From: Bacilli bacterium
GTDB lineage: Bacteria > Bacillota_I > Bacilli_A > RF39 > UBA660
NCBI GenBank assembly: GCA_036342255.1
Contig: JAZAUS010000002.1
Location: 6,334-70,333 of the forward strand
DNA length: 64,000 nucleotides
Reading direction: 5' to 3'
Shown here piece after piece: positions 6,685 to 26,752 of this stretch. The notes under the pieces were generated by a model. The model saw nothing but the letters and a program-made list of their open reading frames with translations. It was not told the origin of the DNA and did no database searches. A program made the translations under genes and the position numbers. Positions within the stretch are counted from its first letter, which is position 1. The number at the start of each line of letters is the position of its first letter.

Positions 6685-8736
6685 CTATTTCGTATGTTTA
6701 TTATAATATTTATCATTAGCAATATACATTTCTATTTTTACACCAATTTTAACTACTAATTCATTTAATATCTCTTTTATTTTATTATTATAATCTTTAA
6801 TATTATTTATATCATTATCTTCTAAACTTTTTAATTGCTTATTGATTGTATTTATTATATCTTTTCGCATATTTTTTTTCTGTTCTTCATTTAAAACATT
6901 ATCTTCTATATAATTATTTAATTCCTTAACTGTAGATGTTATAGCCTTATTTTGATCATCTTCTTTTAATGTTACTCTTCCATTTAATTCAGTTATTTCC
7001 TTACTTTCAGTCAACTCTTTAATTATATTATCTTTATTACATTTTTCTAATAATGGATTTCCCGCTCCCAATAATTCATAATATTTTAATAATTTTAAAA
7101 CAAACTGTAATTCTTTTCTCAATTCTAATTCTTTATCATTATATTTATCTTTCTTTAAAGGCTTAACATCTTTCTCTTTTAAAATATTTTTTAAATCATT
7201 TTTATATTTATTTATACAATCATTAAACTTATCTTCTAAAATTTTTCTATATTCTACACTTGATAAAGATTTAATACTTATTTTAATACCCGTTAATAAT
7301 TCTCCAATTTCTGTTTCATTATTATTCCCTTCCAAAGAAGAAAGTAACAATTCATACGGCAATTCATTATAATAATACTTTGATATTTCATCATATAATT
7401 TTGATATTTCTAAATCAAAGTATACATCTATATCTAAATCACTATTAATATCTTCTTTATTATTTATAATAGCCTTAATACTTGAATTTATTTTTTTAAT
7501 AGCTGTATCAATAATAGTATTAAAATCTTTTTCATATTTCTTTTTTTTATCATCTGGCATACTATTTATCATATATATAATATTATTTATTTTAGAATCT
7601 ATAGAATCAGCATCTTTTATAAAATCAAGTTTATCTTGAGATAATAATTCTTTATAACTTTCTAATTTAACAATTTTATCATTAGACTTTAAATTAAAAA
7701 TAATAAACTCTAGATTGGTTAATAACTTAGATTTTATATAACCAATATCATTTTTCCCAAAAATAAAATCATTACTTTCCCCATATACTGGACTTGTTTC
7801 CTCTACAGCTTTATCATATTCTTTTAATAACGCATCTACTTTATCATGTATACTATTTTTGATATCATCAGATAAATTATTACATATTTCATCTATTTTA
7901 TATAACAAATCCTGTATATCTTTAGAATACTTATTAATATCTTTAATATTATTTCCTTTATTATCATCTTCAGTTGACTTTTCATCATCTAGCAACTCAA
8001 TATTCACTGATTGCAAAATATCTTCTAGCATTGATTCATACATAAAAGAATACAAATGAGATTTTTTAATATCTTCACTAAGAGGATAACCTATATTTAA
8101 CGATATTCCTGATAATATGCCTTTTTGACATATAAACAATTCTTTTTGTCTATCCATTAACCATTTTATAGGCTTTACTTCGAACCATATTCGACGTCTC
8201 TTAGTATCATTTAAAAAAACATATTTCCTACCATTATACTCATATTCATCAAAAGGAACAAATCCTTCATTTCGATCTTTCAAATGATAACTCTTACCTG
8301 TTTTTTTCATTTCATAAAATTTCTTATTCAATTCTTTTTGCATTTTAGAATCAACTAAATCTTGAGGATATTCTCCAAATTCTACTTCATAATATCCATC
8401 AATATAGTTAGCTTTTGGTAACAACTTCTCAAATAAAAGAGGATATTTTATGACTGGAAGTATAATTCCGTACCATTCAGGTAAAAGACATTTACCTTCT
8501 TTACCATTTTCATCAAAACACTTTACATAATACTTATCCCTACTACGCCAATGTTCTTCATAAATAGTACCCTGAGTATAGAATTCCGGATAATTATAAT
8601 TACTAAGATTTTTAGCTAAATCAGTACAATTAAAATTGTAACCAAATCTTTTTATTACTTCTAATATGTTATCTCCCCATACTTCTTCTGGAGAAAGTAT
8701 ACCAATTTCTATTGAATCTGAATACATATTTATCAC
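6685..8736 (-). CDS. paralog family member P1 (type-1 N-module, 683 aa), function unknown
   Basis: N-term M..IEIGILSPEEVWG, YYEVEFGEYPQ, YEYNGRKYV, WFEVKPIKW, conserved C-terminal core ending IYIANDKYYNKHTK; no signal peptide. Confidence 0.8.
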   Translation of the reverse strand: MINMYSDSIEIGILSPEEVWGDNILEVIKRFGYNFNCTDLAKNLSNYNYPEFYTQGTIYEEHWRSRDKYYVKCFDENGKEGKCLLPEWYGIILPVIKYPLLFEKLLPKANYIDGYYEVEFGEYPQDLVDSKMQKELNKKFYEMKKTGKSYHLKDRNEGFVPFDEYEYNGRKYVFLNDTKRRRIWFEVKPIKWLMDRQKELFICQKGILSGISLNIGYPLSEDIKKSHLYSFMYESMLEDILQSVNIELLDDEKSTEDDNKGNNIKDINKYSKDIQDLLYKIDEICNNLSDDIKNSIHDKVDALLKEYDKAVEETSPVYGESNDFIFGKNDIGYIKSKLLTNLEFIIFNLKSNDKIVKLESYKELLSQDKLDFIKDADSIDSKINNIIYMINSMPDDKKKKYEKDFNTIIDTAIKKINSSIKAIINNKEDINSDLDIDVYFDLEISKLYDEISKYYYNELPYELLLSSLEGNNNETEIGELLTGIKISIKSLSSVEYRKILEDKFNDCINKYKNDLKNILKEKDVKPLKKDKYNDKELELRKELQFVLKLLKYYELLGAGNPLLEKCNKDNIIKELTESKEITELNGRVTLKEDDQNKAITSTVKELNNYIEDNVLNEEQKKNMRKDIINTINKQLKSLEDNDINNIKDYNNKIKEILNELVVKIGVKIEMYIANDKYYNKHTK

Positions 8737-8776
8737 TTCTCTCTACTATTATTTTTTGTTCATTTAATTATCTAAA

Positions 8777-11083
8777 CTATTTCGTATGTTTATTATAATA
8801 TTTATCATTAGCAATATATATATCTATTTTTAAACCTACATCTACTATTAAGTCATGTAAAATATTTTTTAATTCTTTATTATATTCTTTAGCATTTTTT
8901 ATATCTTTTGTTGTTAAATTCTTTATTGATTCATCTATTCTATTTATTAAGTCATTTCGCATTTCATTTTTGATTTCTTCTTCTATTACATTATCTACTA
9001 TATAGTTATTTAATTCTATTACTGTTGATGTTATAGCTTTTGACTCATCTTCTTTAGATATATCTTTTTTTATTTTTCTATTAATTATATCTTTACTTTC
9101 TTCTAATTCTTTTAAAATACTATCTTTATTATACTTATTATTAGATTGTTCTTCTAACACTTCTAATATATCATATTTTTTGATTAATTTTGCTAATTCT
9201 TGGATTTCTTTTCTTATACTAATCTCTATTTCTTTAGAATTAGTTTTCTTTAACAAATCATTATTATTTAAAATATCTGTTATTAACTGTATATACTTCT
9301 CTTTAATATTATTAAATCTAGTTTCTATATCGTCTTTGTATTTTATATTATTTTCTTTTAATTCTTTTATTTTTTCTTCTATTAATTTTATTTCTTCGAT
9401 AAGATTTGAACTATTATTGTCTTCTTTATTTAAGGCGTTTAGTAGCTTTTCAAATGGTAATGCAGTATTACGATATGATAATATTTCATCATATAGTTTA
9501 GATATATTTAAATCTAGTTTTCTATCTATATTAGAATCTTTTGATAGTGATAAATCTGGTTTATCATTAGTTTCTTTTTCTAATTCTTTTGATAATTCAT
9601 TAATAGCGTCATCTATAAAACTAATTAATGATTTTTCAAATGTCTCTTTTTTTGAATTGCTCATTTCATTTAATATAAATATAATATTATTTATTTTAGC
9701 CTCTGTTGAATTATCATCATTAACTAGTATAGTTCCATTTTGAGATAATAATCTTTTATATTTACTTAATTTTTCTAATAATTTAATAGTCTTGTCTTCA
9801 TTTTTTAAGTTTAGTATTATTAATTCTAAATTAGATAATAATGATGTTTTTAAATAAGCAATATCTTTTTTATCTATATCTAATTCATAGATATTTCCAT
9901 ATTTTGGTTTAGCTTCTTTTAAATCATTATCATATTGATCTAGTAAACTATTTACTTCATCCATTATACTCTTTTTGGTATTATCTGGTAGATTATTACA
10001 AATATCATATATCTTATCTAATAATTCTTCTATATCATTAGAATATTTATTAATTCTAGTTGGATTATCTTTTACTTTATTAATATATGATAATATTATC
10101 TCTTTTGGTAATATATTCTTAATTGTATTCATCGCAACATCACTTAATTCAGGACCATCTAAAATTATTTGAGCTATTCCTGTAAAATCTTTTAATTCTT
10201 CAATTATTGCTTTTAATTCATAAATATTATTATACTTAATTGTTTTTGTTAATTTTGTTGATTGTAAGATATCTTTTAAAAAGTATTTTTTTAAAAATTG
10301 TTCTGTATCTTCTCTAGATGGTTTTATAGTATGTACTTTTACATAATAACGTATTTTTAGATATATTTCTTCATATTCTTTTTCTGTTTTACATATATTA
10401 TTAAATAATCCTAGTTTAGAATATAATACTCCATCTTCTATCTCCCATTTTATAGGTAATACTTTAAGCCAATATACTTCATTATTATTGTTTATGAAAC
10501 GAATATATTTTTCATTGTTATACTCATATTCTTCATAAGATTTATATGTAGTTTTACAATGTTTATTAACTACCCTTCCACTAACAATACCAAAATTATA
10601 TTGTTTTGGCTTTATTACAACCTTAGGTTCTTCTTTTATTATTGTTGATGGGATAGTATAAGTCTTTCCTGTTTTTTTAAATTCTTTACTATTAGAAGAA
10701 CCTCTTTGAATAAATAATTGTTCTAGTTTTTTTTGAGTATCTGGCTCTACTTTAGTTTGAGGATATTCACCTAACTCTATGGTTTTACTGCTACTATTAT
10801 TTTTTGTAATTTGAGATAACAATTCAGCATCTAATTCTATTTTAGGATATACTGCTTTATCAGGATATCCTAAATAATCCTTAGTACTATCTTTATTAAT
10901 AGCCATTAATAGTGTTAAATCAGTGGAAGTAAAGTTTCCTTTGGTTAAGTTAGATACGGGATAGCCCATTCGTATTAAATATTCTTCATCTGTTTCTTCA
11001 GCATATGGAGTATTATCATCATAATGACTACGACTTTTATAATTTGGAATTTGTAAATCATTTAAATAATCTATGCTTATCAT
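8777..11083 (-). CDS. paralog family member P2 (type-2 N-module, 768 aa)
   Basis: N-term IDYLNDL, IELGEYPQ, YEEYEYNNEKYIRF, WLKVLPIKW, ILDGPEL, shared C-terminal core; last about 14 aa and 3' DNA identical to P1. Confidence 0.8.
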   Translation of the reverse strand: MISIDYLNDLQIPNYKSRSHYDDNTPYAEETDEEYLIRMGYPVSNLTKGNFTSTDLTLLMAINKDSTKDYLGYPDKAVYPKIELDAELLSQITKNNSSSKTIELGEYPQTKVEPDTQKKLEQLFIQRGSSNSKEFKKTGKTYTIPSTIIKEEPKVVIKPKQYNFGIVSGRVVNKHCKTTYKSYEEYEYNNEKYIRFINNNNEVYWLKVLPIKWEIEDGVLYSKLGLFNNICKTEKEYEEIYLKIRYYVKVHTIKPSREDTEQFLKKYFLKDILQSTKLTKTIKYNNIYELKAIIEELKDFTGIAQIILDGPELSDVAMNTIKNILPKEIILSYINKVKDNPTRINKYSNDIEELLDKIYDICNNLPDNTKKSIMDEVNSLLDQYDNDLKEAKPKYGNIYELDIDKKDIAYLKTSLLSNLELIILNLKNEDKTIKLLEKLSKYKRLLSQNGTILVNDDNSTEAKINNIIFILNEMSNSKKETFEKSLISFIDDAINELSKELEKETNDKPDLSLSKDSNIDRKLDLNISKLYDEILSYRNTALPFEKLLNALNKEDNNSSNLIEEIKLIEEKIKELKENNIKYKDDIETRFNNIKEKYIQLITDILNNNDLLKKTNSKEIEISIRKEIQELAKLIKKYDILEVLEEQSNNKYNKDSILKELEESKDIINRKIKKDISKEDESKAITSTVIELNNYIVDNVIEEEIKNEMRNDLINRIDESIKNLTTKDIKNAKEYNKELKNILHDLIVDVGLKIDIYIANDKYYNKHTK

Positions 11084-11124
11084 TCTATCATTCCTTTACA
11101 ATACAATTAAAGTATCTTTTTTAA

Positions 11125-13530
11125 TTATTTGGTATGTTTTTCATAATTAGATATTCTTTTATTATATATTTCCATTTCTAATTCTACATCTACTAAACTA
11201 TATAATATTTTTCTTAGTTCTTGATTATAATCTTTTAAATTATTTATTTCTTTTTTATTTAAATCTTCAATTGATTCATCAATTTTCTTAATTATAAGAT
11301 TCCTTATCATATCTCTAGTGTCTTTATCAGGTATTTTTTTATATAAATAATTATTCATTTCAGTAATAGTAGATGTAATTGCTTTTAATTCAATATCTTT
11401 TGTTATTTTAACAGTTTCTTTATTGTTTATTATTTGTTTACTTTCTTCTAATTGATTTAATAAATCTTCTTTATCATATTTTTTTGTTTTTAATGAATCC
11501 ATAATATTATATTGTTTTATCATAATTAATAATTCTTGTATTTCTTTTATAAGTTTAGTTTCTATTTTTTCATATTTAGTATTATTTAATAAATCTTTAT
11601 TACCTATGATATTTTTTAGCATATTAATATATTTTGCCTTTATAGAATTAAATTTATTATTAATATCTTCTTTATAATTATTATTTGATAAATTATTAAC
11701 TATTTCTTCAATTAAATTTAATTCTTCAATTATATCTGATGAAGTATTAGTATTCTTCTCTAAAGCATTTAGTAATTTTACAAATGGTATTATCTTATTA
11801 TAAGATAAAGATACTTCATCATATAATTTAGAGATATTTAAATCTAATTTTTTATCTATATCAAAACCATTGTTATAAGATAAATCTGGTTTAAAATCTA
11901 TACCTTTTTCTAATTCTTTTGATACTCCCCTAGTAGCATCATCTAAATATTTTATTAGTTCTTCTCTATATGATTCTTTATTATTATTTATTTCATTTAT
12001 CATAAATATAATATTATTAATTTTAGCATATATAGAACTATCATCTTTTATTAATTCTTTTGGACTTGTAGATAATATTTTTTTATAATTACTTAATTTT
12101 TCCATATAGTTAATAGCTTTATCTTCACTTGTTAGCTGCAATAGTATTAATTCTAATTCATTTAATAATAATGGTTTTAGTAAATCAATATCTTTTTCAC
12201 CAAGATTAAAGTCATTGCTAGAGCCAAATTCTGGTTTAGCCTCTTTTAGATCTTTTTTATATTGTTTTAGTAATTTACTAACCTTATCTGTTATACTTTT
12301 TTTAGTATTATCTGGTAAATTATTACTAATGTTATATATCTTATCTAATAAGTCTTGTATATCTTCAGAAAAGTCACCATTTTTGAAAGATAGTTCTATT
12401 AATGGGGAAATTAACCTTTTAATTTTTTTTATTTCACTGCTAGTTAGTTCAGGACCATCTAATATAAGTTTAGTTATCCTTTTTGTATCATCATAAATTT
12501 TAACTCTATCATATTCTTTTGTATTTTGTTGGAAAATATTATGCATTATATCTGTATTATTCTTTTTTTTATCCTTATGTGCTTGATCTTTATTACCATT
12601 CAAAATACTTTTTAATTCATTAAAATTAGTATATTTTATAACTTTTGTTAAATTAACAGATTGGAGAATATCTTTTAAAAAATTATTTTCTAGGAAATTA
12701 CTAGTTTTATAATCTGATATTTCTATGAAACTCCAAGGCTTTTTTTTCCACCAATTTTCATAATAATAATCTTTTTCATAATAAGGTACATCACGATTCA
12801 TAACTTCATATGCATATCTACTTATATTTCGATCTTCATTTCCTAAAAAACTATTAAATAGTCCTAATTTTGAATATAAGATTCCATTTTCAACTTCCCA
12901 TTTTATTGGTAAAACTTTTAACCATATTACTTCATTAGATTTTCCTTTTCTATTATCAACAAAACGTATATACTTATTACCTTTATATTCATATTCGTTA
13001 TATTTTGTTACTCTATCCTTACTTTCCCTATTTTGAAATCTATATTTACCATAATATGCATCTGAGGGCTCTGATTTAATTATTGGTGTTGTTTCTATAG
13101 TATATGTATGTCCAGTTAGTTTTAGTTTTTGATAAGCAGATGCTTTGGAATTATTATAGAATGAACTGGCAGTTTTATATAATTGTTCTAGTTCTTGCCC
13201 AACTACTGGGTCAGCCTTAGTTTGAGGATATTCACCAAATTCTATTATATTATCATCACTATATTCATCAATAAGTGATAATAAAATATCTTTGGGTAAT
13301 AATAATTTAGGATATACTATTTCGTTTATTGATCCATATCTAAAAACAGGAATAAATCTGGCCATGTAATAATCATAACTTGTTAATTCAGCTAAATCAG
13401 TTTTATTAAAAGATTCTTCTTCTAAGCATGATGTAGGATATCCTAATGTTTTTATACTCTTATAATCAAGAAGTCTATCAGTTGATATTTTATCTAGATT
13501 AGGACAATAATCTATTTCAATGTGTTCCAT
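11125..13530 (-). CDS. paralog family member P3 (type-2, 801 aa)
   Basis: IEFGEYPQ, YNEYEYKGNKYIRF, WLKVLPIKW, FLKDILQSV, ILDGPEL, NISKLYDEV, KAITSTITEMNNYL. Confidence 0.8.
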   Translation of the reverse strand: MEHIEIDYCPNLDKISTDRLLDYKSIKTLGYPTSCLEEESFNKTDLAELTSYDYYMARFIPVFRYGSINEIVYPKLLLPKDILLSLIDEYSDDNIIEFGEYPQTKADPVVGQELEQLYKTASSFYNNSKASAYQKLKLTGHTYTIETTPIIKSEPSDAYYGKYRFQNRESKDRVTKYNEYEYKGNKYIRFVDNRKGKSNEVIWLKVLPIKWEVENGILYSKLGLFNSFLGNEDRNISRYAYEVMNRDVPYYEKDYYYENWWKKKPWSFIEISDYKTSNFLENNFLKDILQSVNLTKVIKYTNFNELKSILNGNKDQAHKDKKKNNTDIMHNIFQQNTKEYDRVKIYDDTKRITKLILDGPELTSSEIKKIKRLISPLIELSFKNGDFSEDIQDLLDKIYNISNNLPDNTKKSITDKVSKLLKQYKKDLKEAKPEFGSSNDFNLGEKDIDLLKPLLLNELELILLQLTSEDKAINYMEKLSNYKKILSTSPKELIKDDSSIYAKINNIIFMINEINNNKESYREELIKYLDDATRGVSKELEKGIDFKPDLSYNNGFDIDKKLDLNISKLYDEVSLSYNKIIPFVKLLNALEKNTNTSSDIIEELNLIEEIVNNLSNNNYKEDINNKFNSIKAKYINMLKNIIGNKDLLNNTKYEKIETKLIKEIQELLIMIKQYNIMDSLKTKKYDKEDLLNQLEESKQIINNKETVKITKDIELKAITSTITEMNNYLYKKIPDKDTRDMIRNLIIKKIDESIEDLNKKEINNLKDYNQELRKILYSLVDVELEMEIYNKRISNYEKHTK

Positions 13531-13558
13531 ATTTGCCTCCTAATAATTCTTATTATGT

Positions 13559-16500
13559 TCATTTAATAATCTTCTTATATGTTTTCAAATCATATATATA
13601 TATTTCTATTTGTAATCTTACATCCATTAATTTACCTAATACTTCATATAAGTATTTATTATAATCTTTATAATTATTAATTTGAATATCATTTAATTCT
13701 ATTATTTCATTATCAATAATTTCATTTAGTAAATCTTTTACTTCTCTTATAGTATTAATATCAGATATATTATCTATAAGATAATTATATGTTTCTATAA
13801 CAGTAGATGTTATAGCCTTTAATTCATCATAATTAGATAAGTGAGCATCTTCTTTGTTAATTATATCTTTACTTTCTTTTAATTGTTCTAATAAATTATC
13901 TTTAGTATATTTTAGATGAGATTTTATATTTATACTTTCTAAGACATTATATTTTTTTATTAGTTTTAATAAATCTTGTAAATCATTTTTAAGATTTTTT
14001 TCTATTTCATCATATTTTGTTTTATTTAATGATTTGCTATCATTTAAAAGACTTTCTAATATACAAATATTTTCTGCTATTAAAGTATTAAATCTGTTTT
14101 CTATTTCATCTTTATAATCGCTATTATTTTCTATTAATACTTTAATAACCTCTTCTATACCAGATATTATATTAGTTATGTCTATATTGGTACTACCATT
14201 ATTATTTATAAGTGAATTAAGTAACTTTTCAAATGGTACATTTTTTTCATAATAGGTTAAAACTTTATCATATAATTTAGATATGTTTAATTTGAATGTT
14301 TTATCAACATCAAAATTTTTTGGTAATGATATGTCAGGTTTATCATCAATACCTTCTTCTAATAATTTAGATAACTCTTTAATACTATTATCAATAATTG
14401 TATTTAATTCATTCAAATATAATTGTTTCTTATCATCATTCATTTCATTTGTCATAAATATAATATTATTAATCTTAGTTTCTATAGAGTCATTATCTTT
14501 AATAAATTGGGTATTGTTTTGAGATATTATTTTTTTATAATTACTTAATTCTTCTAAGAATTTAATAGTTTTATCTTCATTAGTTAGATTTATATTTATT
14601 ATTTCTAATTTAGATAATAATGATGGTTTTAAAGAATAAATATCATCTTGTCCTATAACAAGTTCATTAGTATGATTAAATTTAGGTTTTAATTTTTGAA
14701 TACCATTATCATATTGCTTTAATAATTCTTTTACTTGATCTGTTATTTTTTTCTTAGCATTATTTGGCAAACCATCACAGATACTATTTATTTTATCTAA
14801 TAAATTTTGAATATCTTTTGGATATTCTTTTGTTTGTTCTTCTTCTATTACAGTTTTCATTTTTTCTTTTTCAATTGAGAAACTATTAATAAACATTTTA
14901 TTATTTAAAAAGGTATATATTCCACTATCAATAAATATAGATTTTTCATTTTTAATCATAGTCATTAATAATACATCTTTACTAATTAGCAAATCATTTT
15001 TTTCATCTATTAACCAAGTAATACCTTTGACTTTATACCATATTTTAACACTTCCTTTTTGTTGAACATAAACATATTTTTCCCCATTATATTCATATTC
15101 ATAGCATTTTTCTTTTAGAGAACTATCTAATTGATATATTCTCCCCGTTTTCTTTAACTCATTATTCTTAAAAAGAAAATCTAAATGATTCATTAAATAT
15201 ACTTCTACTTCTTCTTGAGGATATTCACCAAACTCCACTTCGTAATAATAACCCTGACGAGATGCATTTGGTAATAATTTCTTAACAAGATTTTTTGATT
15301 TTATAACTGGTAATAATTCAATAGAAGAATATTGGTTAAAATATAAATTATTGTTTTTCTGATCTAAAGCCTTAAATATCACTCCATTGTTGTCCATAAA
15401 CCATTTAGAAAACAAGCAATTGTTAAATTCCCCTTTTCTAGGGCTTAAAAGAATAGGATAACTATCAAGAATACTGTTTCTAAAAGTTAAATATATTTTC
15501 TTTGCAAAATCTGTCACATGAATAGGATTATGTCTCAAATCATACATATTTTTTAATGTTTTTTCAATATAATCTGGTGATAATAAAGTTAACTCCATAT
15601 CATTATTGATTCTAAATACTAAATTAGATATTTCTTCAGAAAACATGCCATTAATTAATACATCTAAATCTTTACTATTTCCATATATTATTTCAGCTTT
15701 TGGAGAAAAGAAATGTTTTATAGATTCTAATTCACTTTTATTTAATTCTGGTCCATCTAAAATTATCTTTGATGCTTTATTATAAGTACTAATTCCCCCA
15801 TTATTTTTAATAATAGTATTTAATTCTTTAAAGTTATTATATTTTATAGCCTTAGATAATTTTACTGTTTGTAATATATCTTTTAAAAAATGATCTTCTA
15901 AAAAATTAATAGTTTCTTCTTTTGATGGTTGTAGTCTACTTATTTTACTTAAACCTTTTTTATTTTTATTAATGTCTTCTGTTATAAATAAATTATTAAA
16001 GACACCAATTCTAGAATATAAGTATCCATCTTGATAATCCCATTTTATAGGAGAAACTTTAAACCAATTAACTATAGGTAATAAACTATATTCATCATCA
16101 ACATAACGAATATATTTTTCATTATTAACTTTAAATTCAATACAATTCTTAGCAAATACTCTTCCTTGCATATGAATAACATTAGATTTTTCTCCATTAG
16201 GTAATTTAATAGTCTTCTCTTTCTCTTGAGTAATAATATTATTTGGTATTGTATAAGAATTACCAGTTACCTTTAAAGCATCACTTTTAGTCCTATATAA
16301 ACGTTCTAAATATAAATAGGTTGTTTCATCAACTCCATTTTGAGGATACTCACCAAATTCGATAGTTGAAATTTTAGCATCTTTATTTGAAATAAAAGAC
16401 ATTACTTCATCTGGTAATTTAATTCTTGGATATACTATAGCATTAGATAAATGATCGGGATATTTTGAAGAAATACAGCATGTCAAATCTGCCAAATCAG

Positions 16501-17044: not shown

Positions 17045-17183
17045 TCTTTATTAGTATCTTTTCTAAAATAACTTAGTATTAAAAATAATCCTGCTAATAA
17101 ACCTATAAACTGTATTATTAAAAATTTTATTTCCATATTGTATCCCTTATTCTATTAATTATTTATTTTATAAATATTTTAAG

Positions 17184-19322
17184 CTATCTAGTACGTTCAT
17201 TATATTCTTTAACTTTTTTTAAATACATATCCATATGTATTCTTACATTCATTATTTCTTTCAAAATTTCAAATACTATTTTACTATATTCTTCATAATT
17301 TTTAATTTTTATATTATTATTGTCTATTTTATAATTATATTTATCTAGTATCTTTTTTAAATCATCAAATATTTCCTTCTTTATTTCTTCATCTATTTCA
17401 CTATCTAATAAATCATTGTTTAATTCTGCAATTGTAGATTCAATAATATCATTACTATTTTCATAGGGAACATCACATTTTTCATAGCCTTCTATTATTT
17501 TTTTACAAAGGCATAATTGGTTACCTAATTCATAATTATAATTCATATACTTTTTAGGGGTTAAAGGAGTTAATACTTCTAATAAATTATATTTCTTTAT
17601 TAATAGTAATAATTCTTGTAATTCTCTTCTAAAATTTACTTCTATTTTTTCATAGTTAGAATTTTTTAACAGTTCATCATTATTAATAATATTTTTAATC
17701 ATATTAATGTATTTAATTATAATATTATTTTTTTTTCTTTTTATTTCTTCTTTTTGTTCTTTATCAGTTAATTCAGATGTTATTTTATTAATTCCTGTTA
17801 ATAGTTCATCTATTTCTGAAAGATTATCTTTTCCTTCTAATGAAGATAATAGTTTTTCAAAAGGTATTGCCTTTTCATGATATAATGATACATTATCATA
17901 TAATTTAGATATATTTAATTTAAGTTGCATATCAGCATCAAATCTTGGAGGAAAGGCATCTGGTTTATCATCTATACCTTTTTCTAACTCTTTTGATACT
18001 TCTTTAATAGCTTCATCTATATATTTAACTAATTCATTTTCAAAAAAATCTTTCTTATTACTAGTTATATCGTTTATCATTACTATAATATTATTAATCT
18101 GACTATCTATAGAATCATCATTTCTTATTAGTTCTTTAGGATTTGTAAATAATAATCTTTTATAGTCACTTAACTTTGATAATAAATTAATGGCTTTTTT
18201 TTCGCTTGTTAGTTTCATAACTATCATTTCTAATTCAACTAATAGTGTAGATTTTATCATACTAATATCTTTTTTATCAATATCAAATTCATCATTAAGA
18301 CTGTATTTTGGTTTAGAATCTTCTAAATCTTTATCATAATCACTTAATAATTTATCTACTTTGTCTAAGATAGGTTTTCTTGCATTATCTGGTAAATTAT
18401 CAACTATATTATTTATTTTATCTAATAATTCTTGTATATCTTGAGGATATTTGCCATATTTTTGTTTTTTTACTGACTGTAAAATATCTTTAACCATATA
18501 CTTATTCATAAATCTATATAGAGAAGAATCTTCAAATCTATAATTGCTACCATGACTTCCAGGACCATCATAACAAAATCGATTAGCAAGAGGTATACCT
18601 GATAGTATTCCATTTTTACATATAAACAATTCTCTTTCTGGATCAATAATCCACTTTAATGGTTGGACCTCATACCAAACCTTTTTAGTTTTACTTTTAT
18701 TTAAATAGTTCATACTGGCGATGGGAGCATTTTCTACATCTACACAAACATATCTTTTACCATTATATTCATATTCATCATATGCTATAACATTATCATC
18801 ACTAAACTTTTCTTCATTTTTTTCATCATCATCTTTCAAATAATATTTTCTATCAGTTTTATTTAATTGATCAAATGATAACATTCTAGTTAATTCTATT
18901 TGTAAATCAGTGCTTGCCATATTTTGAGGATACTCTCCAAATTCTACTTCTAATATGCCATTATTTTTATTTCCTTTAGGAAATAAATATTTAAATAAAG
19001 ATGATGATTTTATAACTGGAAGTATAATTCCATTGGACAAGCATCTATCTAATTCCCCCTTCTTACCATTTTCTAAAATAGTACTATAACTTACCTTAAT
19101 ATAATCAAAATTATTAGATGTCAATATCATATAAGGATACTTTCTATTTGATAAAGCTTTGGCTAAATCAGAACTTGGAATTTTAGAATGAGTCTTTTTA
19201 AGCTTTTCTATGTATTCATGAAATGTTTCTATTCTTCTATACTGAGAAAAAACTTCTTTTCTTTGATTTAATCCCCAAACATCATATGGTGAAAGTATAA
19301 TCATTTCAACATCATTAAACAT
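17184..19322 (-). CDS. paralog family member P5 (type-1, 712 aa)
   Basis: N-term VEMIILSPYDVWG, LEVEFGEYPQ, YDEYEYNGKRYV, WYEVQPLKW, YPQDIQELLDKI core. Confidence 0.8.
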   Translation of the reverse strand: MFNDVEMIILSPYDVWGLNQRKEVFSQYRRIETFHEYIEKLKKTHSKIPSSDLAKALSNRKYPYMILTSNNFDYIKVSYSTILENGKKGELDRCLSNGIILPVIKSSSLFKYLFPKGNKNNGILEVEFGEYPQNMASTDLQIELTRMLSFDQLNKTDRKYYLKDDDEKNEEKFSDDNVIAYDEYEYNGKRYVCVDVENAPIASMNYLNKSKTKKVWYEVQPLKWIIDPERELFICKNGILSGIPLANRFCYDGPGSHGSNYRFEDSSLYRFMNKYMVKDILQSVKKQKYGKYPQDIQELLDKINNIVDNLPDNARKPILDKVDKLLSDYDKDLEDSKPKYSLNDEFDIDKKDISMIKSTLLVELEMIVMKLTSEKKAINLLSKLSDYKRLLFTNPKELIRNDDSIDSQINNIIVMINDITSNKKDFFENELVKYIDEAIKEVSKELEKGIDDKPDAFPPRFDADMQLKLNISKLYDNVSLYHEKAIPFEKLLSSLEGKDNLSEIDELLTGINKITSELTDKEQKEEIKRKKNNIIIKYINMIKNIINNDELLKNSNYEKIEVNFRRELQELLLLIKKYNLLEVLTPLTPKKYMNYNYELGNQLCLCKKIIEGYEKCDVPYENSNDIIESTIAELNNDLLDSEIDEEIKKEIFDDLKKILDKYNYKIDNNNIKIKNYEEYSKIVFEILKEIMNVRIHMDMYLKKVKEYNERTR

Positions 19323-19340
19323 ATTATCACTCCTCGTATA

Positions 19341-21443
19341 TTATCTTGTATATTCTTTCCATTCTTTCATATTAGCTATATAATTATTTATTTCTATCTT
19401 TATTCCCATTATATCACTTAGAATCTTTTTTAACTCTTCCATATATTCTTTTGGATTATTTATATCAGTTTTTTCAAGTTCTAATTCTTTTTTGTCTATA
19501 ATACTAACTAAATCATGTTTTATTTCTTTTTTAGTATCATTATCTATTACACTATTAATTAAATGATTATTAATATCTATAATTGTAGAAGTAATAGATT
19601 GTAATTCAATCTCATTAGTTATTTCAACTACTTTATTACCTAATATTATTTGTTTGCTATCTTGTAATTCTTTAATTAGATTATTTTTACTATAATTTTT
19701 AGGTTTACATAATTCTAATATATTATATTTTTTTATTAATAATAATAATTCTTGTAATTCTTTTCGTAAATTATTCTCTATCTTTTCATACTTAGTATTT
19801 TTAATTAGTTCATCATTACCTATAATATTATTAATCATAGATATATAATTAGTTTTAATATCATTAAACTTAGTTTCTAATTCTTCTTTATACTCTTTAT
19901 TAGGAAATTCTGAAATAATCTTTTTTATATCTAATATCATTTTTCCTATTTCTGAATCATTATTACTATCTGTTTCAAATGCTTTAATTATCTTTTCATA
20001 TGGTATAACTTTATCATAATAAAAAGAAACATCGTCATATAACTTAGATATATTTAATTCTAATTTTTTATCTGCACCAAACCATTCTTTGATAGATATA
20101 TCTGGTTTATTATCTATACCTCTTTCTAATTCTTTAGATACCTCTTTAATAGCATTAGATATATACTTAATTAAATCATTTCTAAATAATTCTTTTTTAC
20201 TATTACTAATTTCATTTATCATAAATATAATATTATTAATTTTACTATCTAAAGAATCATCACCTTTTATTAGGTCTTTAGGATTTGTAGATAATAACTT
20301 CTTATAATCACTTAGTTTTGATAAAAACTTAATAGCTTTTTCCTCACTTGTTAAACTTATAATTATCATATCTAATTCTGTAATTAAATTTGTTTGTAAA
20401 AATTTAACATTTTTTAATTCTATTATTAATTCATGTTTAGGATTAAACATTGGTTTTGTCTGTTCAACATCTTTATCATATTCAATTAATAATTTATCTA
20501 CTTCCATCATAATAGAACTTTTTACATCATCTGGTAACTTACTACATACTTTAATTATTTCATTTATTTTTTCTTGTACTTCTTTAGGATATTTACTATA
20601 ATTTCTTGCTGGTTCAGATGATAATGATTTATCTTCTTCTAAAGAAACTGTTTGCATGATATCTTTTAACATACATCTAGTTATAAAATGATAAATCGCA
20701 GTATTTGAGTATTTAATCGTTCTCGCATACTTTTCATTTATTTTAGGTGCATAATATTTTATATTAGATAAAAGAGCTTTTTCACATACAAAACATTTTC
20801 TTTTCTCATCAACTAACCACTTTATTGGTTTTACCTCAAACCATCTATTTTTTTTATTACTTACATAATATCCAACTCTTTTAGGATTTGATTTTTCTTC
20901 TGGAATACAAATATACTTTTTTCCATTATATTCATACTCATCGTATGCTATTCTAGTTGCACTCCAATCTGTATTCCAACCTCCTTCCCATTCTTCAGTT
21001 ATATAATATCTTCTTCCAGTTTTATGTAATTGGTTAAGTGATAATTTATTATCTAGTTGTCTTTGCTCTACACTACTTACTTTTTCTTGAGGATATTCTC
21101 CAAATTCTACTTCATAGTAACCTTTCCAAACAGCTTTAGGAAATAATTGTTTAAATAACTCTTCTGAAGTAATAACAGGAAGTATTGCTCCATCCAAGTC
21201 ATAATGTGTAAATTCTTTTTCTCCATTTGGTAAAATGGAAACACCCATTAAATAATCTGAATAATAAGGATTGCCTTGAATTTCGGTACCACTTGTATGT
21301 ATGATTAGTGGTTCTTTCCCAGTATAAAGCTCCTGTGCTAAATCAGTACAAGAAAAACTTGTACCATATTCTTTTAAAACATCTAATTTATCTTCTCCCC
21401 AAACATCTTCTGGAGATAATAAAGATATTTCTACATTTTTCAT
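19341..21443 (-). CDS. paralog family member P6 (type-1, 700 aa)
   Basis: N-term VEISLLSPEDVWG, YYEVEFGEYPQ, YDEYEYNGKKYI, WFEVKPIKW, ITSTIIDINNHL. Confidence 0.8.
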   Translation of the reverse strand: MKNVEISLLSPEDVWGEDKLDVLKEYGTSFSCTDLAQELYTGKEPLIIHTSGTEIQGNPYYSDYLMGVSILPNGEKEFTHYDLDGAILPVITSEELFKQLFPKAVWKGYYEVEFGEYPQEKVSSVEQRQLDNKLSLNQLHKTGRRYYITEEWEGGWNTDWSATRIAYDEYEYNGKKYICIPEEKSNPKRVGYYVSNKKNRWFEVKPIKWLVDEKRKCFVCEKALLSNIKYYAPKINEKYARTIKYSNTAIYHFITRCMLKDIMQTVSLEEDKSLSSEPARNYSKYPKEVQEKINEIIKVCSKLPDDVKSSIMMEVDKLLIEYDKDVEQTKPMFNPKHELIIELKNVKFLQTNLITELDMIIISLTSEEKAIKFLSKLSDYKKLLSTNPKDLIKGDDSLDSKINNIIFMINEISNSKKELFRNDLIKYISNAIKEVSKELERGIDNKPDISIKEWFGADKKLELNISKLYDDVSFYYDKVIPYEKIIKAFETDSNNDSEIGKMILDIKKIISEFPNKEYKEELETKFNDIKTNYISMINNIIGNDELIKNTKYEKIENNLRKELQELLLLIKKYNILELCKPKNYSKNNLIKELQDSKQIILGNKVVEITNEIELQSITSTIIDINNHLINSVIDNDTKKEIKHDLVSIIDKKELELEKTDINNPKEYMEELKKILSDIMGIKIEINNYIANMKEWKEYTR

Positions 21444-21475
21444 ATTATCACTTCTTTCAGATTTTACTAAGTCTA

Positions 21476-23788
21476 TTACTTAATGATTTTTTTATATTTT
21501 TCCTCTTCTTTTGTATATACTTCTGTTTCTAGTTGAAGTTTCATTATTTTTCCTAATATTTTTCTTAATTCTTTATCATATTCTTTTTTGTTATTAATGG
21601 CCTTTCCTTCTAACTCTTCAAGTGATGAGTTAATATCATCCATTAGCTTTACTACTATTTCATTTTTTATATCTAATTTTATATCGTTATCTATTAAATA
21701 GTTATTTAATTCTTTAACTGTAGAGGTTATTGCTTTTAACTTGTCCTCTTCAGTTAGTTCAACTTTTTTATTATTTTTAACTATTTCTTTGCTTTCTTTT
21801 AATTCTTTAATTAAACTATCTTTGTTATATTTATCTGGTTTAAATAAATCTAATATTTCGTATTTCTTTACTACTAATAATAATTCTTGTAATTCTCTTC
21901 TTAAATTTAGTTCTATTCTTTCGTAGTTAGAGGTTTTAAGTAGATTACTATTATTAAGAATATTATTTATCATATTTATATATTTAGTTTTAATTTCATT
22001 ATATTTATTTTCTATTTCTTCTTTATGTTTGTTTTTAGATGAATCATTAATAATTATATTTATTCCTTTTAATATTTCATCTATTTCTGGTAATCTACCA
22101 TTACCCTCTAATGAAGATTTTAGTTTTTCAAAAGGTACTGACTTATCATAGTAAATAGATACTTCATCATATAATTTAGAGATATTTAATTCTAATCTCT
22201 TATCTACATCAAAATCTTCTTGAAAAGAATAATCTGGTTTAGTATCTATACCTTTTTCTAATTGTTTAGATACCTCTTTAATAGCTTCATCTATATAATT
22301 AATTAATTCTTTATAAATTGATTCTTTTTTACTAGTATTCATTTCATTAGACATGGCTAAAATATTATTTATTTTAGCCTCTGTGGTACTAGTATCACCT
22401 ACTATAGATAGATTATTTTGAGATAATAATTTCTTATAGTTACTTAATCTTGACAAATAGTTAATAGCTTTTTCCTCACTATTTAACATCATAATTATTA
22501 TTTCTAATTTAGATAATAATATTGGCTTTAGGTTTTCTATATCTTTCCCATTATAACTAAAGGGAGTATCAAAACCAAATTTTGGTTCTAATTCTACTAT
22601 ATCTTTATCATATTCATCTAATAATTTATCTACTTCATCAAACACATTTTTCTTTGCAACACTAGGTAGATTATTACATATAATACTTATTTTATTTAAT
22701 AAAGCTTGGATGTCTTCATGGTATTTACTATATTTAGAATTAATATTCTTTATTTCACTTCCGTAAGATATTTTGATTTCTGATGGAACTAAGGCTTTTA
22801 TTTTATTCATTTCTTGTTTTGTTAGTGTAGGACCATCTAATACTATTTCTGTAATACCATCTTTAAGTTCATAATTATTATCTTTTATTGTCATTTCTAA
22901 CTCAATAAAAGTATTATATTTTATTACTTTTGATAAGTGTACTGTTTGTAATAGATCCTTTAAAAACTGAGTTTCTAAGAATTGTTTAGTTTCCTTATAT
23001 GATTCTGTTAAATATTTATAATGTGTTTTAATTCCTAAAATACTATCATCTTCTTCTTTGTTGTTTTCTAATAAAGTATTAAATAAGCCTTGTTTTGCAT
23101 ATAGAATTCCATCTTCTATTATCCAAGTTACTGGTGATACTTCAAGCCATATTTCTTCTTTTGTTCCATATATTATATCTGAATAAACATAGCGTATATA
23201 TTTTTTGTTTTTATACTCATATTCTTCATATGTTGTTTTATTTGTTTTACCTGTTGTATTATAAGGATTGCTATGGCCACCCTTAATAAATCTTATCTTT
23301 GTTGGATTTTCTATTCTACGTGTTTCTTTAATTGTTGTTGTTGGGATGGTATATGTATTTCCTGTTGGTTTTAATTCTTGACTATTATTTGCATTAGGTT
23401 GTTGATATATTTGAATACTACTTGCATTTTTTTGTTTATATAGTTGTTCTAATTCTTGTTGAAGTTCTGGTTCTACTTTATTTTGAGGATATTCTCCAAA
23501 CTCTATAGTTGTTATACTAGAATCATTATTAGTAATTGATGCTAGCATCTCTTGTGGTAATATTAACTTGGGATATACAGTGTTACTATCTTGAACGATT
23601 GTTAATTTACCTAAATATGTTATATTAAAATTTCCTTGAGTTAGGTTTGCTATAGGTAAACCAAGTCTCTTTACATACTCCTCATCAGTTTCTTCATTAT
23701 TATTGGGAAAATCAGAAGCATATCGAGAACGATTCTTCTTCCTTACTATCTCCAAATTTCGTAAATAATCTATTTTTATTTTTTCCAT
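21476..23788 (-). CDS. paralog family member P7 (type-2, about 770 aa)
   Basis: IEFGEYPQ, YEEYEYKNKKYIRY, WLEVSPVTW, ILDGPTL; start moved to M8 (ATG 23788 with AGGA RBS) versus ORF-track 23809, which lacks an RBS. Confidence 0.75.
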   Translation of the reverse strand: MEKIKIDYLRNLEIVRKKNRSRYASDFPNNNEETDEEYVKRLGLPIANLTQGNFNITYLGKLTIVQDSNTVYPKLILPQEMLASITNNDSSITTIEFGEYPQNKVEPELQQELEQLYKQKNASSIQIYQQPNANNSQELKPTGNTYTIPTTTIKETRRIENPTKIRFIKGGHSNPYNTTGKTNKTTYEEYEYKNKKYIRYVYSDIIYGTKEEIWLEVSPVTWIIEDGILYAKQGLFNTLLENNKEEDDSILGIKTHYKYLTESYKETKQFLETQFLKDLLQTVHLSKVIKYNTFIELEMTIKDNNYELKDGITEIVLDGPTLTKQEMNKIKALVPSEIKISYGSEIKNINSKYSKYHEDIQALLNKISIICNNLPSVAKKNVFDEVDKLLDEYDKDIVELEPKFGFDTPFSYNGKDIENLKPILLSKLEIIIMMLNSEEKAINYLSRLSNYKKLLSQNNLSIVGDTSTTEAKINNILAMSNEMNTSKKESIYKELINYIDEAIKEVSKQLEKGIDTKPDYSFQEDFDVDKRLELNISKLYDEVSIYYDKSVPFEKLKSSLEGNGRLPEIDEILKGINIIINDSSKNKHKEEIENKYNEIKTKYINMINNILNNSNLLKTSNYERIELNLRRELQELLLVVKKYEILDLFKPDKYNKDSLIKELKESKEIVKNNKKVELTEEDKLKAITSTVKELNNYLIDNDIKLDIKNEIVVKLMDDINSSLEELEGKAINNKKEYDKELRKILGKIMKLQLETEVYTKEEEKYKKIIK

Positions 23789-23828
23789 ATTTTTAATCCT
23801 TCTTTTCATCTAAAATATAATATTACCA

Positions 23829-24578
23829 TTACTTTATTCCTTTTTTCTTGTTTAAATATTCATATATACATTTTTCTCTTTTTAAATCGTTATTTTTAAC
23901 ATTAGTATTAGGTAACATTTGATAATCACTAGCAACATATGGTGTACTCTTCTTTTTAAAAAATACTGTCTCTACAGTTGAATAATTTGTTCCATCAAAT
24001 CCAAATCCTTCAGATACTTCTTTAAAACCTAAACTATGATATAAGTTTTTAGCTCTTAAATTATGCATTAAGCAATCAAATCCTATTTCATCGAATCCTT
24101 CTTCATGCATTTGTTCAATAAAGTATTTCAAAAGCCTTTTACCTATACTTTTACCACGTAAATTAGTATCAATACATATATTGGTTAAATACATATATTT
24201 TTTCTCAACGACTTCATCTATTAATACTTTTAAATAATTATCTACTGTAAATTTATAATTATCATTTACATTAATTAAGTTAGTATAATCATAATCTAGA
24301 TTTGTAGTTGTATCAATAGCTCCACATATTCCTATTATTTTTTTATTTTCTTTATCATATGCAACATAAAAGTTTTCATAATGAAATATAAATCCTTCTT
24401 CATGCATTAATGGAACTAACACCTTTATAGCTTCATCCAAATTATTATTAAACCAAAAAGGATATATATATGGATCTGTATCATATATTAATCTAGCTAT
24501 CTCACTAAAATCATCATCTATAGTAGCCCTTCTCAATATTATATCATCAAAATTTATTTCATAACTTTTCTTACTCAT
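23829..24578 (-). CDS. GNAT-family N-acetyltransferase embedded in the paralog array
   Basis: 249 aa; acetyl-CoA binding-like motif NLRGKSIGKRLL (R/Q-x-x-G-x-G/A) in translation. Confidence 0.6.
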   Translation of the reverse strand: MSKKSYEINFDDIILRRATIDDDFSEIARLIYDTDPYIYPFWFNNNLDEAIKVLVPLMHEEGFIFHYENFYVAYDKENKKIIGICGAIDTTTNLDYDYTNLINVNDNYKFTVDNYLKVLIDEVVEKKYMYLTNICIDTNLRGKSIGKRLLKYFIEQMHEEGFDEIGFDCLMHNLRAKNLYHSLGFKEVSEGFGFDGTNYSTVETVFFKKKSTPYVASDYQMLPNTNVKNNDLKREKCIYEYLNKKKGIK

Positions 24579-24616
24579 TATTTTATTCTCCTTATATCTT
24601 TTATATTTAGTTATTT

Positions 24617-26752
24617 CTATTTAATACTCTTATTATAGTTATTTACATCCTTAACATAAATTTCAGTTCTTATTCTTATATTAATTATCTCACCTAATAT
24701 CTTATTTAATATATCATTATATTCTTTTTCATTTTTAATATCTTTTTTTTCTATATTTAGAATATATTTATCTATAATATTATTAAATTCAATTCCTATC
24801 TGTTCTATAGTTTTTTGATCTGTTATATTATCCATTAGATAATTATGAGTTTCTATGACAGTAGAAGTAATTGCCTTTAATTCATCTTTTTCAGATAATT
24901 GTCTAATTCCTGAAATATTAATAATAATCTTACTTTCTCTTAATTGTTCCAAAATATTATCCTTATTATATCTTCTATAACCATATACATCTAGTAAATT
25001 ATTCTTCTTTATTAATTTTAATAATGATTGTAATTCTTTTATTAAATCTGTTTCTATTTCATCATAATTTGTTTTATTAAACAATTCATCATTACCTTGA
25101 AGTTCATTAAGTAATATATCTCTTAATTTATCTATATATTTATTTCTAATAGAATTATATTTATTATTTACTTCTTCTTTATATTGGTTATTTGGTAAAT
25201 AGCTAATAATTTCTTCTATAGATAACAATAGATCTTTTATTTCAGAATTAATATGATTCTCTTTTAATAAAGAGCTTAATAGTTCATGAAGTGGAGCAAT
25301 TTTTTCATAATAAGATTTTACTTCATCGTATAGTTTTGAAATGTTTAATTCAAATTTTTTATCAATATCAAATTCTTTTTTTGTTGTTAAATCTATTTCA
25401 TTATCTATATCTTTTTCTAATATACTTGATAAGTCTTTAATAGCATCATCTATATATTTTGTTAATTTATTTTTTAGTATTATATCTTTACGTCCAGTAG
25501 TTTTATTCAACATAAAGACAATATTATTAATTTTATTATCTATAGAATTATCATCTTTTATTAATTCTAACTGTTCTTTTTTTGTTAATTTCTTAAAACT
25601 ACTTAATCTTTCTAAATACTTAATAGTTTTATCTTCATTATTTAAATTAGATATAATTATTTCTAATTTAGTTATTAGTAGTGGCTTTAATAATCTTACA
25701 TCTTTTTGTTCAAGACTAAAAGTTTCATTGAGACTAAAACTTGGTTTTAAAGAATCAATATCTTTATCATATTCTTTTAATATATTTTCTACATTTGATA
25801 AAACATTATTTTTAGCATTATCTGGCAAGTTATTACATATATCATTTATTTTATCTAATAAATCTTGAATTTCTTTTGGATATTTATTAGATTCTTTTTT
25901 TTCTATTTTTGATTGTTCTGTTATTTTTTCTTTTACATCATTATTAAAAGAAATATTTATACCATTTGGTATTAATAAACTAATTCTTTTTTCTTCAAGA
26001 AAGCTTAATTTAGGTCCACAAAAAACAATATTAGTAATTCCTTTATAAACCTTAAATCTATTGTTATCTTCAATTATATTCTTTAATTCAGTAAAATTTT
26101 GATAATTAATTGTTTTTTTAAAATTAACGGATTGTAAAATATCTTTCAAAAAATATTTTTGTAAAAATTTAGTAGTTTTTTCATATGCTATGGTGTAATT
26201 AAGATGAGAATTAGCACTATAATCTCCTTCTAATAAATAATTAAGCAATCCATCTCTTGAATATAAAACTCCACCTTCAATTTTCCATTTTATTGGTAAT
26301 ACTTTAAACCAACCTTTTTCAGTTATTTTAGTTTCAATATCATAAAAAGCATAGCGAATATACTTTTTACCTTTATATTCAAATTCTTGAAATATTTTTT
26401 TATTTGTTTTAGGATAGCCTTTTTCTAATCTAGATATTTCAATTGTAAAAGTATTACCAGTAGTTTTTAACTCTTCCTGGTAAGATTGATACTTTTTTTC
26501 CAATTCTTCTCTTAATTTTTGTTCAACTCTCTCTTGAGGATAATATCCTAATTCTATCATTTTTACATTAGGATCATTATTTGTTTTTAGTGATAATATT
26601 TCTTCTGGTATTATTAATTTAGGATAAACAAATTCTTTAGAAAAGATGGATTTTTTTGATCTATTAAGATTTGCAAAAACTGTACCCTGAAGATTTACAT
26701 TTATCTTTTTTTTCTCATCTTCAGTCATATCATCAATTATTATTTTTTTCAT
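24617..26752 (-). CDS. paralog family member P8 (type-2, 711 aa; first in transcription order)
   Basis: IELGYYPQ, FQEFEYKGKKYIRY, WFKVLPIKW, FLKDILQSV, YPKEIQDLLDKINDICNNLPDN core. Confidence 0.8.
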   Translation of the reverse strand: MKKIIIDDMTEDEKKKINVNLQGTVFANLNRSKKSIFSKEFVYPKLIIPEEILSLKTNNDPNVKMIELGYYPQERVEQKLREELEKKYQSYQEELKTTGNTFTIEISRLEKGYPKTNKKIFQEFEYKGKKYIRYAFYDIETKITEKGWFKVLPIKWKIEGGVLYSRDGLLNYLLEGDYSANSHLNYTIAYEKTTKFLQKYFLKDILQSVNFKKTINYQNFTELKNIIEDNNRFKVYKGITNIVFCGPKLSFLEEKRISLLIPNGINISFNNDVKEKITEQSKIEKKESNKYPKEIQDLLDKINDICNNLPDNAKNNVLSNVENILKEYDKDIDSLKPSFSLNETFSLEQKDVRLLKPLLITKLEIIISNLNNEDKTIKYLERLSSFKKLTKKEQLELIKDDNSIDNKINNIVFMLNKTTGRKDIILKNKLTKYIDDAIKDLSSILEKDIDNEIDLTTKKEFDIDKKFELNISKLYDEVKSYYEKIAPLHELLSSLLKENHINSEIKDLLLSIEEIISYLPNNQYKEEVNNKYNSIRNKYIDKLRDILLNELQGNDELFNKTNYDEIETDLIKELQSLLKLIKKNNLLDVYGYRRYNKDNILEQLRESKIIINISGIRQLSEKDELKAITSTVIETHNYLMDNITDQKTIEQIGIEFNNIIDKYILNIEKKDIKNEKEYNDILNKILGEIINIRIRTEIYVKDVNNYNKSIK

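Follow-up and report, generated by a model that had tools for sequence, protein, structure and literature searches.

What is encoded by a run of eight large paralogous genes whose products match no domain library directly, and do such genes form a new multi-gene system? The question is raised by an array at 6685-26752, minus strand, of a 64,000-nucleotide stretch of DNA (the window) from a metagenome-assembled genome (MAG) annotated "Bacilli bacterium", where the genes lie head to tail under locus tags VZS44_01280-01325. First-pass annotation, made from the sequence alone, had flagged the array as a candidate undescribed system. We conclude that a single gene was amplified in tandem long ago and that its copies have diverged, being mosaic but intact; the family is present beyond this genome, and the status of a multi-gene system is unsupported. 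Each protein joins a variable N-terminal head, which profile comparisons relate to the domain DUF6273, to a constant helical C-terminal tail. As to the function of the array, we argue from these homologies, and favour, at a probability of roughly 40%, an inherited repertoire of cytoplasmic recognition proteins, possibly conflict or defence sensors.

Layout and ancestry of the array

The open reading frame (ORF) listing of the window contains eight paralogous genes encoding 683-1011 amino acids (aa), here p1 to p8. Over their full length, p2-p8 share 34-41% identity with p1, and a profile of the tail finds exactly eight matches in the window (E about 1e-162 to 1e-183), spanning profile positions 1-422 and leaving zero tail residues. 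All the shared motifs quoted in the first-pass annotation recur in every copy: EFGEYPQ, YEEYEYNGKKYIR, W-KV-PIKW and FLKDILQSV in the head, then NISKLYD, ITSTV and the terminal KHTK/KIIK. Two types of head can be told apart, A (p1, p5, p6) and B (p2, p3, p4, p7, p8), with 38-48% identity within a type and about 23-34% between types. Type B is distinguished by an extra module of ~70 aa (IKYxNFxEL...ILDGPEL) that precedes the tail. The members, with two unrelated genes that lie among them, are:

6685-8736, minus strand: p1, 683 aa, with a GVG start in the ORF call; type-A head 7942-8736 (head profile E 3e-72), tail 6688-7941
8777-11083, minus strand: p2, 768 aa; type-B head plus the extra module of ~70 aa 10058-11083, tail 8780-10057
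11125-13530, minus strand: p3, 801 aa; type-B head 12379-13530, with the longest loops and linker of the set, tail 11128-12378
13559-16594, minus strand: p4, 1011 aa; tandem heads, type B 15605-16594 and type A 14837-15604, tail 13562-14836
16619-17044, minus strand: YgjV-like inner-membrane protein, not a member, 141 aa (PF10688, E 9.8e-17)
17184-19322, minus strand: p5, 712 aa; type-A head 18462-19322, tail 17187-18461
19341-21443, minus strand: p6, 700 aa; type-A head 20604-21443 (modelled as 20589-21443), tail 19344-20603
21476-23809, minus strand: p7 (P0025), 777 aa as ORF and 770 aa in the public annotation; type-B head plus extra module 22736-23809, tail 21479-22735
23829-24578, minus strand: GNAT acetyltransferase, not a member, 249 aa (PF00583, E 2e-12)
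24617-26752, minus strand: p8, 711 aa; type-B head with a shortened N-terminus 25895-26752, tail 24620-25894

The number, orientation and sizes of the genes are thus as first described, but the block is not continuous: the YgjV-like and GNAT genes interrupt it, and the intergenic gaps of 18-41 bp have one exception, a 139-bp gap upstream of the YgjV-like gene. The first gene of the array is p8, which begins 28 bp downstream of potD behind a GGAGG ribosome-binding site. GGAGG-like sites are found at several starts, most of the eight copies have a plausible ribosome-binding site, and all eight paralogs are intact, full-length ORFs. The window is strongly AT-rich (GC 0.19-0.31) and uses the standard bacterial code. 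Rfam and tRNA scans gave no match inside the array. No minus-strand terminator-like site was found in the scanned interval 5400-25300, which stops short of the 5' end of p8, and such a scan is uninformative in DNA this AT-rich. A Logan contig that includes p5 (L010) is 100% identical to the window at the DNA level.

Variability is unevenly distributed along the proteins and falls from head to tail. Within a type, the first half of the head averages 31-34% identity and the second half 40-44%, and segments of the tail show pairwise identities of 27-62%, mostly 35-55%. Three loops of the head vary in length across the eight copies, from 8 to 37, 9 to 22 and 37 to 69 aa; two of them largely overlap low-confidence stretches of the AlphaFold2 head model. 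In p4 the head profile matches twice (1e-108 and 5e-26), and both EFGEYPQ and a PIKW-like motif occur twice. This natural fusion of a B and an A head before one tail suggests that heads are exchangeable cassettes.

At the DNA level the paralogs are 60-80% identical, and a repeat scan of 6000-27500 returned paralog-to-paralog repeats only; copies that have diverged this far are old and not cassette-like. Against this background, the 3' ends of p1 and p2 (6685-6962 and 8777-9054, minus strand) retain 78% nucleotide identity over 281 nt while the remainder is far more diverged, and the last 90 aa of the two proteins are 62% identical, compared with 36-49% elsewhere in the tail. Such similarity amid divergence points to local recombination between neighbours that carry different head types. 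The A/B grouping of the heads is not preserved in the tails. GC content at third codon positions (GC3) is 0.09-0.13 in the array, equal to that of the flanks, and recent horizontal acquisition was rejected on this ground.

The head and its relatives

The head comprises the N-terminal ~250-285 aa. AlphaFold2 models that of p6 as one compact beta/alpha, beta-rich domain (pLDDT 85, pTM 0.85), in agreement with the beta-rich N-terminal module and helical C-terminal core that the first-pass annotation had proposed; the tail model likewise reaches pLDDT 85. The same annotation had found no recognisable domain, which holds for direct scans: Pfam, NCBIfam, PADLOC and PHROGs gave nothing significant for the eight proteins, the best PADLOC-DB 2.0 matches (E 0.025-0.05) covered short stretches only, and the relatives also lacked a meaningful match in that library. 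A search of PDB sequences with head and tail profiles peaked at E 0.024 (Hbl-B, at E 0.38, was not significant), and Foldseek comparison of the head model with the PDB returned no match below E 0.1. DUF6273 itself was not detected in any of the eight proteins by hmmscan against Pfam, even at E<=1.

The head could nevertheless be placed through profile comparisons with P0171, a bona fide DUF6273 protein. This lipoprotein contains Flg_new repeats, carries Pfam DUF6273 at residues 510-667 (E 1e-12) and is matched by the head profile at E 3.9e-7 against 5.8e9 sequences. Comparison by hhalign pairs the head's second half with P0171 residues 399-533 (probability 96%, E 2e-9) and its first half with residues 593-664 (probability 90%, E 1.5e-6). 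Since the halves align in swapped order, the head appears to be circularly permuted, and the partial, mostly sub-threshold Pfam DUF6273 matches of several head relatives agree, profile positions 116-168 corresponding to the first half of the head and 9-59 to the second half. We therefore describe the head, on profile evidence, as a circularly permuted, divergent relative of DUF6273 (PF19789), a domain described as C-type-lectin-like and as the target of diversity-generating retroelements (DGRs) or the receptor-binding domain of phage proteins (PMC10743442; bioRxiv 10.1101/2024.10.15.618418). Its carriers include phage receptor-binding proteins ("tentaclins", Mtd-like) and the N-terminal domain of the Thomasclavelia ramosa IgA peptidase (PMC12402451; PMC10743442).

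The likeness consists in the homology of both head halves to a bona fide member at the profile level. The corresponding motifs, with the bona fide form before the permuted-head form where both are given, are FGxYPQ, PIEW/PIKW, xxIRxWLNxxF/FMxxYFxKD, LLSxEE, TDxA, WWTxS and RPxL; in one head relative, moreover, the equivalent segment is the variable repeat of a DGR. The window heads differ from DUF6273 in having their halves swapped and in lying below any Pfam threshold. A signal peptide and Ig-like or Flg_new repeats are missing from the window proteins, and the window contains no DGR.

Searches with a profile of the eight proteins also recovered relatives that share the head only. In 17 of 32 head relatives, the head is followed by an AAA_5/MoxR-type ATPase with a Walker A motif, accompanied in 16 of the 17 by Walker B; in others, pentapeptide or ankyrin repeats come next. 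Two proteins, P0010 (949 aa) and P0022 (938 aa), bear a permuted lectin-like head at both termini of a central AAA_5 ATPase. A triad recurs at three loci (L002:7705-13314, L003:10001-13633 and L012:813-4662), composed of a head-MoxR-like ATPase, a ~133-aa protein and a DUF2201_N+DUF2201 protein; we take DUF2201 to be vWA-like, and such a partner was observed beside AAA-type relatives only. The ATPase part matches the phage ATPase family phrog_1297 (E 8.5e-49). None of the three triads has a PADLOC match, and the ~133-aa protein has no domain.

At one of these loci (L003:7959-11896, corresponding to ENA ERZ28572572, scaffold_41), a DGR cassette lies directly upstream of the head-plus-AAA_5 gene:

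L003:7959-8540: bAvd-like gene (weak Pfam score of 22.8 bits, below the cut-off of 40)
L003:8619-8698: DGR template repeat
L003:8919-9941: reverse transcriptase
L003:10207-10286: DGR variable repeat, encoding head residues ~70-95, in the first half of the head

Template and variable repeat differ at 15 of 80 nt, and 13 of the 15 mismatches fall at template adenines. For a DGR target, it seems unusual to be an AAA+ ATPase and to carry the variable repeat N-terminally. Tandem sets show a related pattern. At L011:299-6021 (ENA ERZ27227484, k141_937683), three tandem head-plus-AAA+ paralogs have AAA+ cores that are 86-100% identical over ~200 residues and heads that are 21-54% identical, a constant body with a variable head that implies head swapping or gene conversion of the body. 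The two tandem copies at L002 are identical save near the C-terminus. Taken together, these homologs suggest that the head is a specificity-determining, rapidly diversifying recognition module of cytoplasmic proteins.

Among the closest described counterparts are the MoxR/vWA "ternary" conflict systems (Kaur et al. 2020, PMC7159879; Dore et al. 2024, PMC10907252), in which DGR-diversified C-type-lectin domains beside MoxR and vWA proteins have been proposed to act as cytoplasmic antigen sensors. The head relatives resemble them in the fusion of the permuted head to AAA_5/MoxR-like ATPases, the DUF2201 triad, the one DGR locus and the tandem constant-body/variable-head sets, all in proteins predicted to be cytoplasmic. 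The window proteins differ: they have an all-alpha tail instead of an ATPase, no Walker motifs, and no vWA, DUF2201, VMAP or effector gene nearby. In the described systems, the lectin domain usually belongs to the vWA protein or to a separate target instead of being fused to the N-terminus of the MoxR ATPase. A DGR acting inside the window was rejected, as neither a reverse transcriptase nor a template repeat is present.

The tail, its distribution and its surroundings

The C-terminal ~415 aa form the tail. Its AlphaFold2 model (p6, from a 37-sequence alignment) shows ~14-15 helices in a repeating short-long-long order (pTM 0.55), and the repeats R1-R3, of ~100 residues each, are mutually related in hhalign (80-95% probability). 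The model indicates an all-alpha domain without a name, in which a three-helix bundle of ~100 residues is repeated about four times, probably as a rod of the spectrin type. Columns conserved in at least 70% of 85 members are almost all I, L or Y, with one Pro and one Glu/Arg pair, and no catalytic or effector signature is recognisable among them. As only hydrophobic core positions are conserved, the tail is better regarded as a scaffold or interaction module than as an enzyme. A degenerate AAA+ domain was also considered and rejected, the tail being all-alpha and free of Walker motifs. Spectrin-like rods such as the EzrA cytoplasmic domain (PDB 4uxv) resemble it in the ~four triple-helical repeats of ~100 aa with short-long-long helices. 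They share no sequence homology with it in a PDB sequence search, matches to EzrA and other three-helix bundles cover one or two repeats only in folds that recur by convergence, and the window proteins lack the N-terminal membrane anchor of EzrA.

Is the family confined to this genome? Among 1.84e9 representatives, a profile search for the tail returned 139 clusters at a threshold of E<=1e-3, of which 92 remained at E<=1e-10, and most of the longer matches span profile positions 5-420. The tail ends no more than 30 residues from the C-terminus in 74 of 85 full matches. It is preceded by BspA-type leucine-rich repeats (LRRs; PF13306) in 42 of the 65 relatives scanned, and by the same permuted head in at least seven further relatives, with another in a Bacilli MAG (L007), the one distant locus found by a profile search of species-representative genome contigs. 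Proteins that join BspA-type LRRs to the tail (P0028, P0031 and P0033, from gut and bioreactor Firmicutes metagenomes) match over the full ~415 aa (up to E 4e-91) and are, like the window proteins, leaderless, soluble products of accessory genes; they differ in their BspA/LRR_5 solenoid head and in being single-copy wherever examined. Phage and plasmid collections gave no match to p6 in tblastn, and pattern scans of IMG/VR and JGI metagenome contigs, made from the tail alignment, confirmed no locus.

In every locus retrieved, the tail relative is a single gene without a conserved partner, set among unrelated housekeeping genes: after a dnaK operon, between ychF and pepF, or between relA and dtd. 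The idea of a multi-gene system is not supported by this comparison, as a gene that is elsewhere single-copy and partnerless makes the array a repertoire of paralogs. A tail gene (P0031, L006:6723-16470) and a head-AAA gene (P0018, L003:1-7042) share one type of neighbourhood, with an ABG transporter and ychF ... rpsF-ssb-rpsR, and this neighbourhood, found in two genomes, may be an insertion hot spot.

The surroundings of the array are likewise metabolic. It splits a polyamine/agmatine neighbourhood, with potABCD and a carbamate kinase upstream (26781-31530, minus strand) and OTCase, an amino-acid permease and agmatine deiminase downstream (2944-6524, minus strand). Because the pot operon, the array and the downstream genes share one strand, read-through transcription from the pot operon is possible. 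The downstream run ends in a bacterial serpin (1341-2927, minus strand; PF00079, E 7e-46) with an N-terminal hydrophobic anchor. Elsewhere in the window, five ORFs of 309-410 aa have no Pfam match at the thresholds used (41856-42887, 52230-53159 and 53173-54405 on the minus strand, 44082-45230 and 45542-46603 on the plus strand), and the two plus-strand ORFs coincide with a local GC/AT skew reversal at 44-46 kb.

What the eight proteins may do

As the first-pass annotation had stated, no signal peptide and no transmembrane helix were detected in the eight proteins by regular-expression and hydropathy scans, which also revealed no C-terminal sorting signal; the maximum Kyte-Doolittle mean over 19 residues is 1.35, compared with 2.33 in the neighbouring membrane protein. 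Pattern scans found no Walker A motif (P-loop), LPxTG, lipobox or YD-repeat array in any copy, again as originally reported; a loose G-x(3-9)-YD pattern gave one or two matches in four copies, which is chance level. A hydrophobic stretch occurs in only 2 of 171 family proteins scanned, once internally and once inside a tail-fragment match. Canonical export signals are found on two internal controls, PotD (lipobox) and the following adhesin:

55072-56937, minus strand: SpaA/thioester-domain (TED) adhesin with a signal peptide and a VPSTG sorting signal

The latter also marks the host as a walled, sortase-using Gram-positive. We infer that the eight proteins are cytoplasmic.

According to the reading we favour, each copy would be a cytoplasmic recognition protein whose variable head binds a ligand, most likely a foreign protein or glycan, for example of a phage or mobile element, and whose constant tail gives a common output, by self-association or by docking to a shared cellular partner. 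The eight copies would then constitute an inherited repertoire of specificities, the paralog counterpart of the DGR hypermutation seen in at least one relative. Recognition of foreign molecules is suggested by the relatives of the head and by the LRRs that take its place in other tail proteins. Of the earlier proposal of defence sensors or effectors, the sensor half gains indirect support from the head relatives (MoxR/DUF2201 neighbours, the DGR, hypervariable heads in tandem sets), but no effector activity is recognisable.

Several observations weigh against a role in conflict or defence. No effector or signalling domain is recognisable in the eight proteins, so that a complete path from sensor to output cannot be drawn. 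The scanned ORFs and repeats of the window contain no reverse transcriptase (RVT_1), template repeat, MoxR ATPase or vWA partner, the DGR link comes from one locus only, and the window proteins have no PADLOC or PHROG match. The neighbours of the array and of its relatives are housekeeping genes rather than defence islands, and the shared GC3 of array and flanks argues against recent mobile acquisition. WWTxS and RPAL, the motifs flanking the variable repeat of canonical relatives, are gone from the window heads, whose binding surface may therefore differ. Finally, DUF6273 and BspA-type LRRs are typical of extracellular proteins, and P0171 itself bears a lipoprotein signal.

Some of the same observations would suit housekeeping-type cytoplasmic adaptors or scaffolds, in which a spectrin-like rod tethers components in the manner of EzrA, the heads bind endogenous partners and amplification reflects sub-functionalisation. 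The purely hydrophobic conservation of the tail, the placement of the gene within housekeeping operons (relA-[gene]-dtd, ychF-[gene]-pepF, potABCD-[array]-OTCase), the native codon composition of the array and the lack of any defence-library match all speak for this alternative, which is possible, if on the unlikely side. A core cytoskeletal factor would not be expected to be as rare and patchy as this family (139 clusters in 1.84e9) or to lack conserved synteny, and there is no EzrA-like membrane anchor. Both kinds of head, DGR-targeted lectin-like domains and LRRs, are moreover known to serve hypervariable recognition, and in tandem sets heads diverge faster than bodies.

Could the proteins instead leave the cell by a non-classical route? 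They would then be adhesins or host- or glycan-binders of a gut bacterium, with the tail as export signal, carrier or wall-association module. The extracellular habit of DUF6273 and BspA-type LRRs, noted above with the lipoprotein signal of P0171, fits this idea, as does the presence of DUF6273 in phage receptor-binding proteins and in the N-terminal domain of the secreted protease ThomasA (PMC12402451; PMC10743442). The conserved module occupies the very C-terminus, a site of several secretion signals, and a repertoire of binding heads would suit host adaptation. Yet all eight copies lack the signal peptide, lipobox, transmembrane segment and sorting motif that the real surface proteins of the same genome carry in canonical form, and hydrophobic stretches are all but absent from the family at large. 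The other partners of the permuted head (AAA+, ankyrin, pentapeptide) are cytoplasmic and no secretion-system gene is linked in the contexts examined, and we regard non-classical export as improbable.

Antigenic variation had been disfavoured in the first-pass annotation, and our data bear this out. On such a reading the array would store silent or alternately expressed cassettes of a surface protein, subject to antigenic or phase switching by slipped-strand mispairing, inversion or gene conversion. The array does share co-directional, diversified paralogs and some mosaic recombination (p1/p2, and head type versus tail segments) with surface-variation families such as Mollicutes lipoprotein arrays and LPxTG adhesins. 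Unlike them, it has no lipobox, signal peptide, LPxTG or switch element. The array has 12 homopolymer tracts of at least 8 nt where 10 would be expected, which is no enrichment, and no 5' end has one placed as a switch would be; TRF detected no simple-sequence arrays, only weak AT-rich repeats of ~two copies. With eight intact, full-length ORFs, most of them with plausible ribosome-binding sites, and copies too old and diverged for cassettes, such a reservoir is very improbable. A polymorphic-toxin (LXG/Rhs-like) or orphan-immunity repertoire, which the first-pass annotation had entertained and for which tandem diversified paralogs are typical, can hardly be credited either, since the polarity is reversed (variable N-terminus, constant C-terminus), there is no toxin-type catalytic signature, YD-repeat array or LXG or Rhs Pfam match, the 18-41 bp spacers leave no small immunity ORFs, no secretion-system genes are linked, and the proteins are far larger than immunity proteins.

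We thus return to the inherited repertoire of cytoplasmic recognition proteins. A bolder and rather doubtful version would make the helical-tail family single-polypeptide immune receptors that are free of any NTPase, in which an LRR or permuted lectin-like head on a four-repeat tail would act by ligand-induced self-assembly, the eight receptors here forming an inherited repertoire as an alternative to a DGR. The general theme, in which a constant body bears variable recognition heads that form tandem repertoires or are diversified by DGRs, is already known. What appears to be undescribed is the tail domain, the permuted cytoplasmic lectin-like head and the NTPase-free architecture in eight copies.

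These data indicate that a ~415-residue tail, with no Pfam, NCBIfam or PDB sequence match, recurs behind two recognition folds, LRR and lectin-like, and that a lectin-like domain of the DGR type probably exists in a permuted, cytoplasmic form, whose fusion partners are MoxR-type ATPases, ankyrin repeats, pentapeptide repeats or the present tail. They also point to two routes to head diversity: DGR hypermutation, in one relative, and tandem paralogy, with two and three copies in relatives (the two-copy pair being near-identical) and eight here. If the proteins are immune sensors, they would represent a nucleotide-independent receptor architecture for bacterial immunity, and eight natural specificities on one scaffold would make a convenient experimental system. 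If they are not immune proteins, the tail would still represent a new family of spectrin-like scaffolds in gut Firmicutes.

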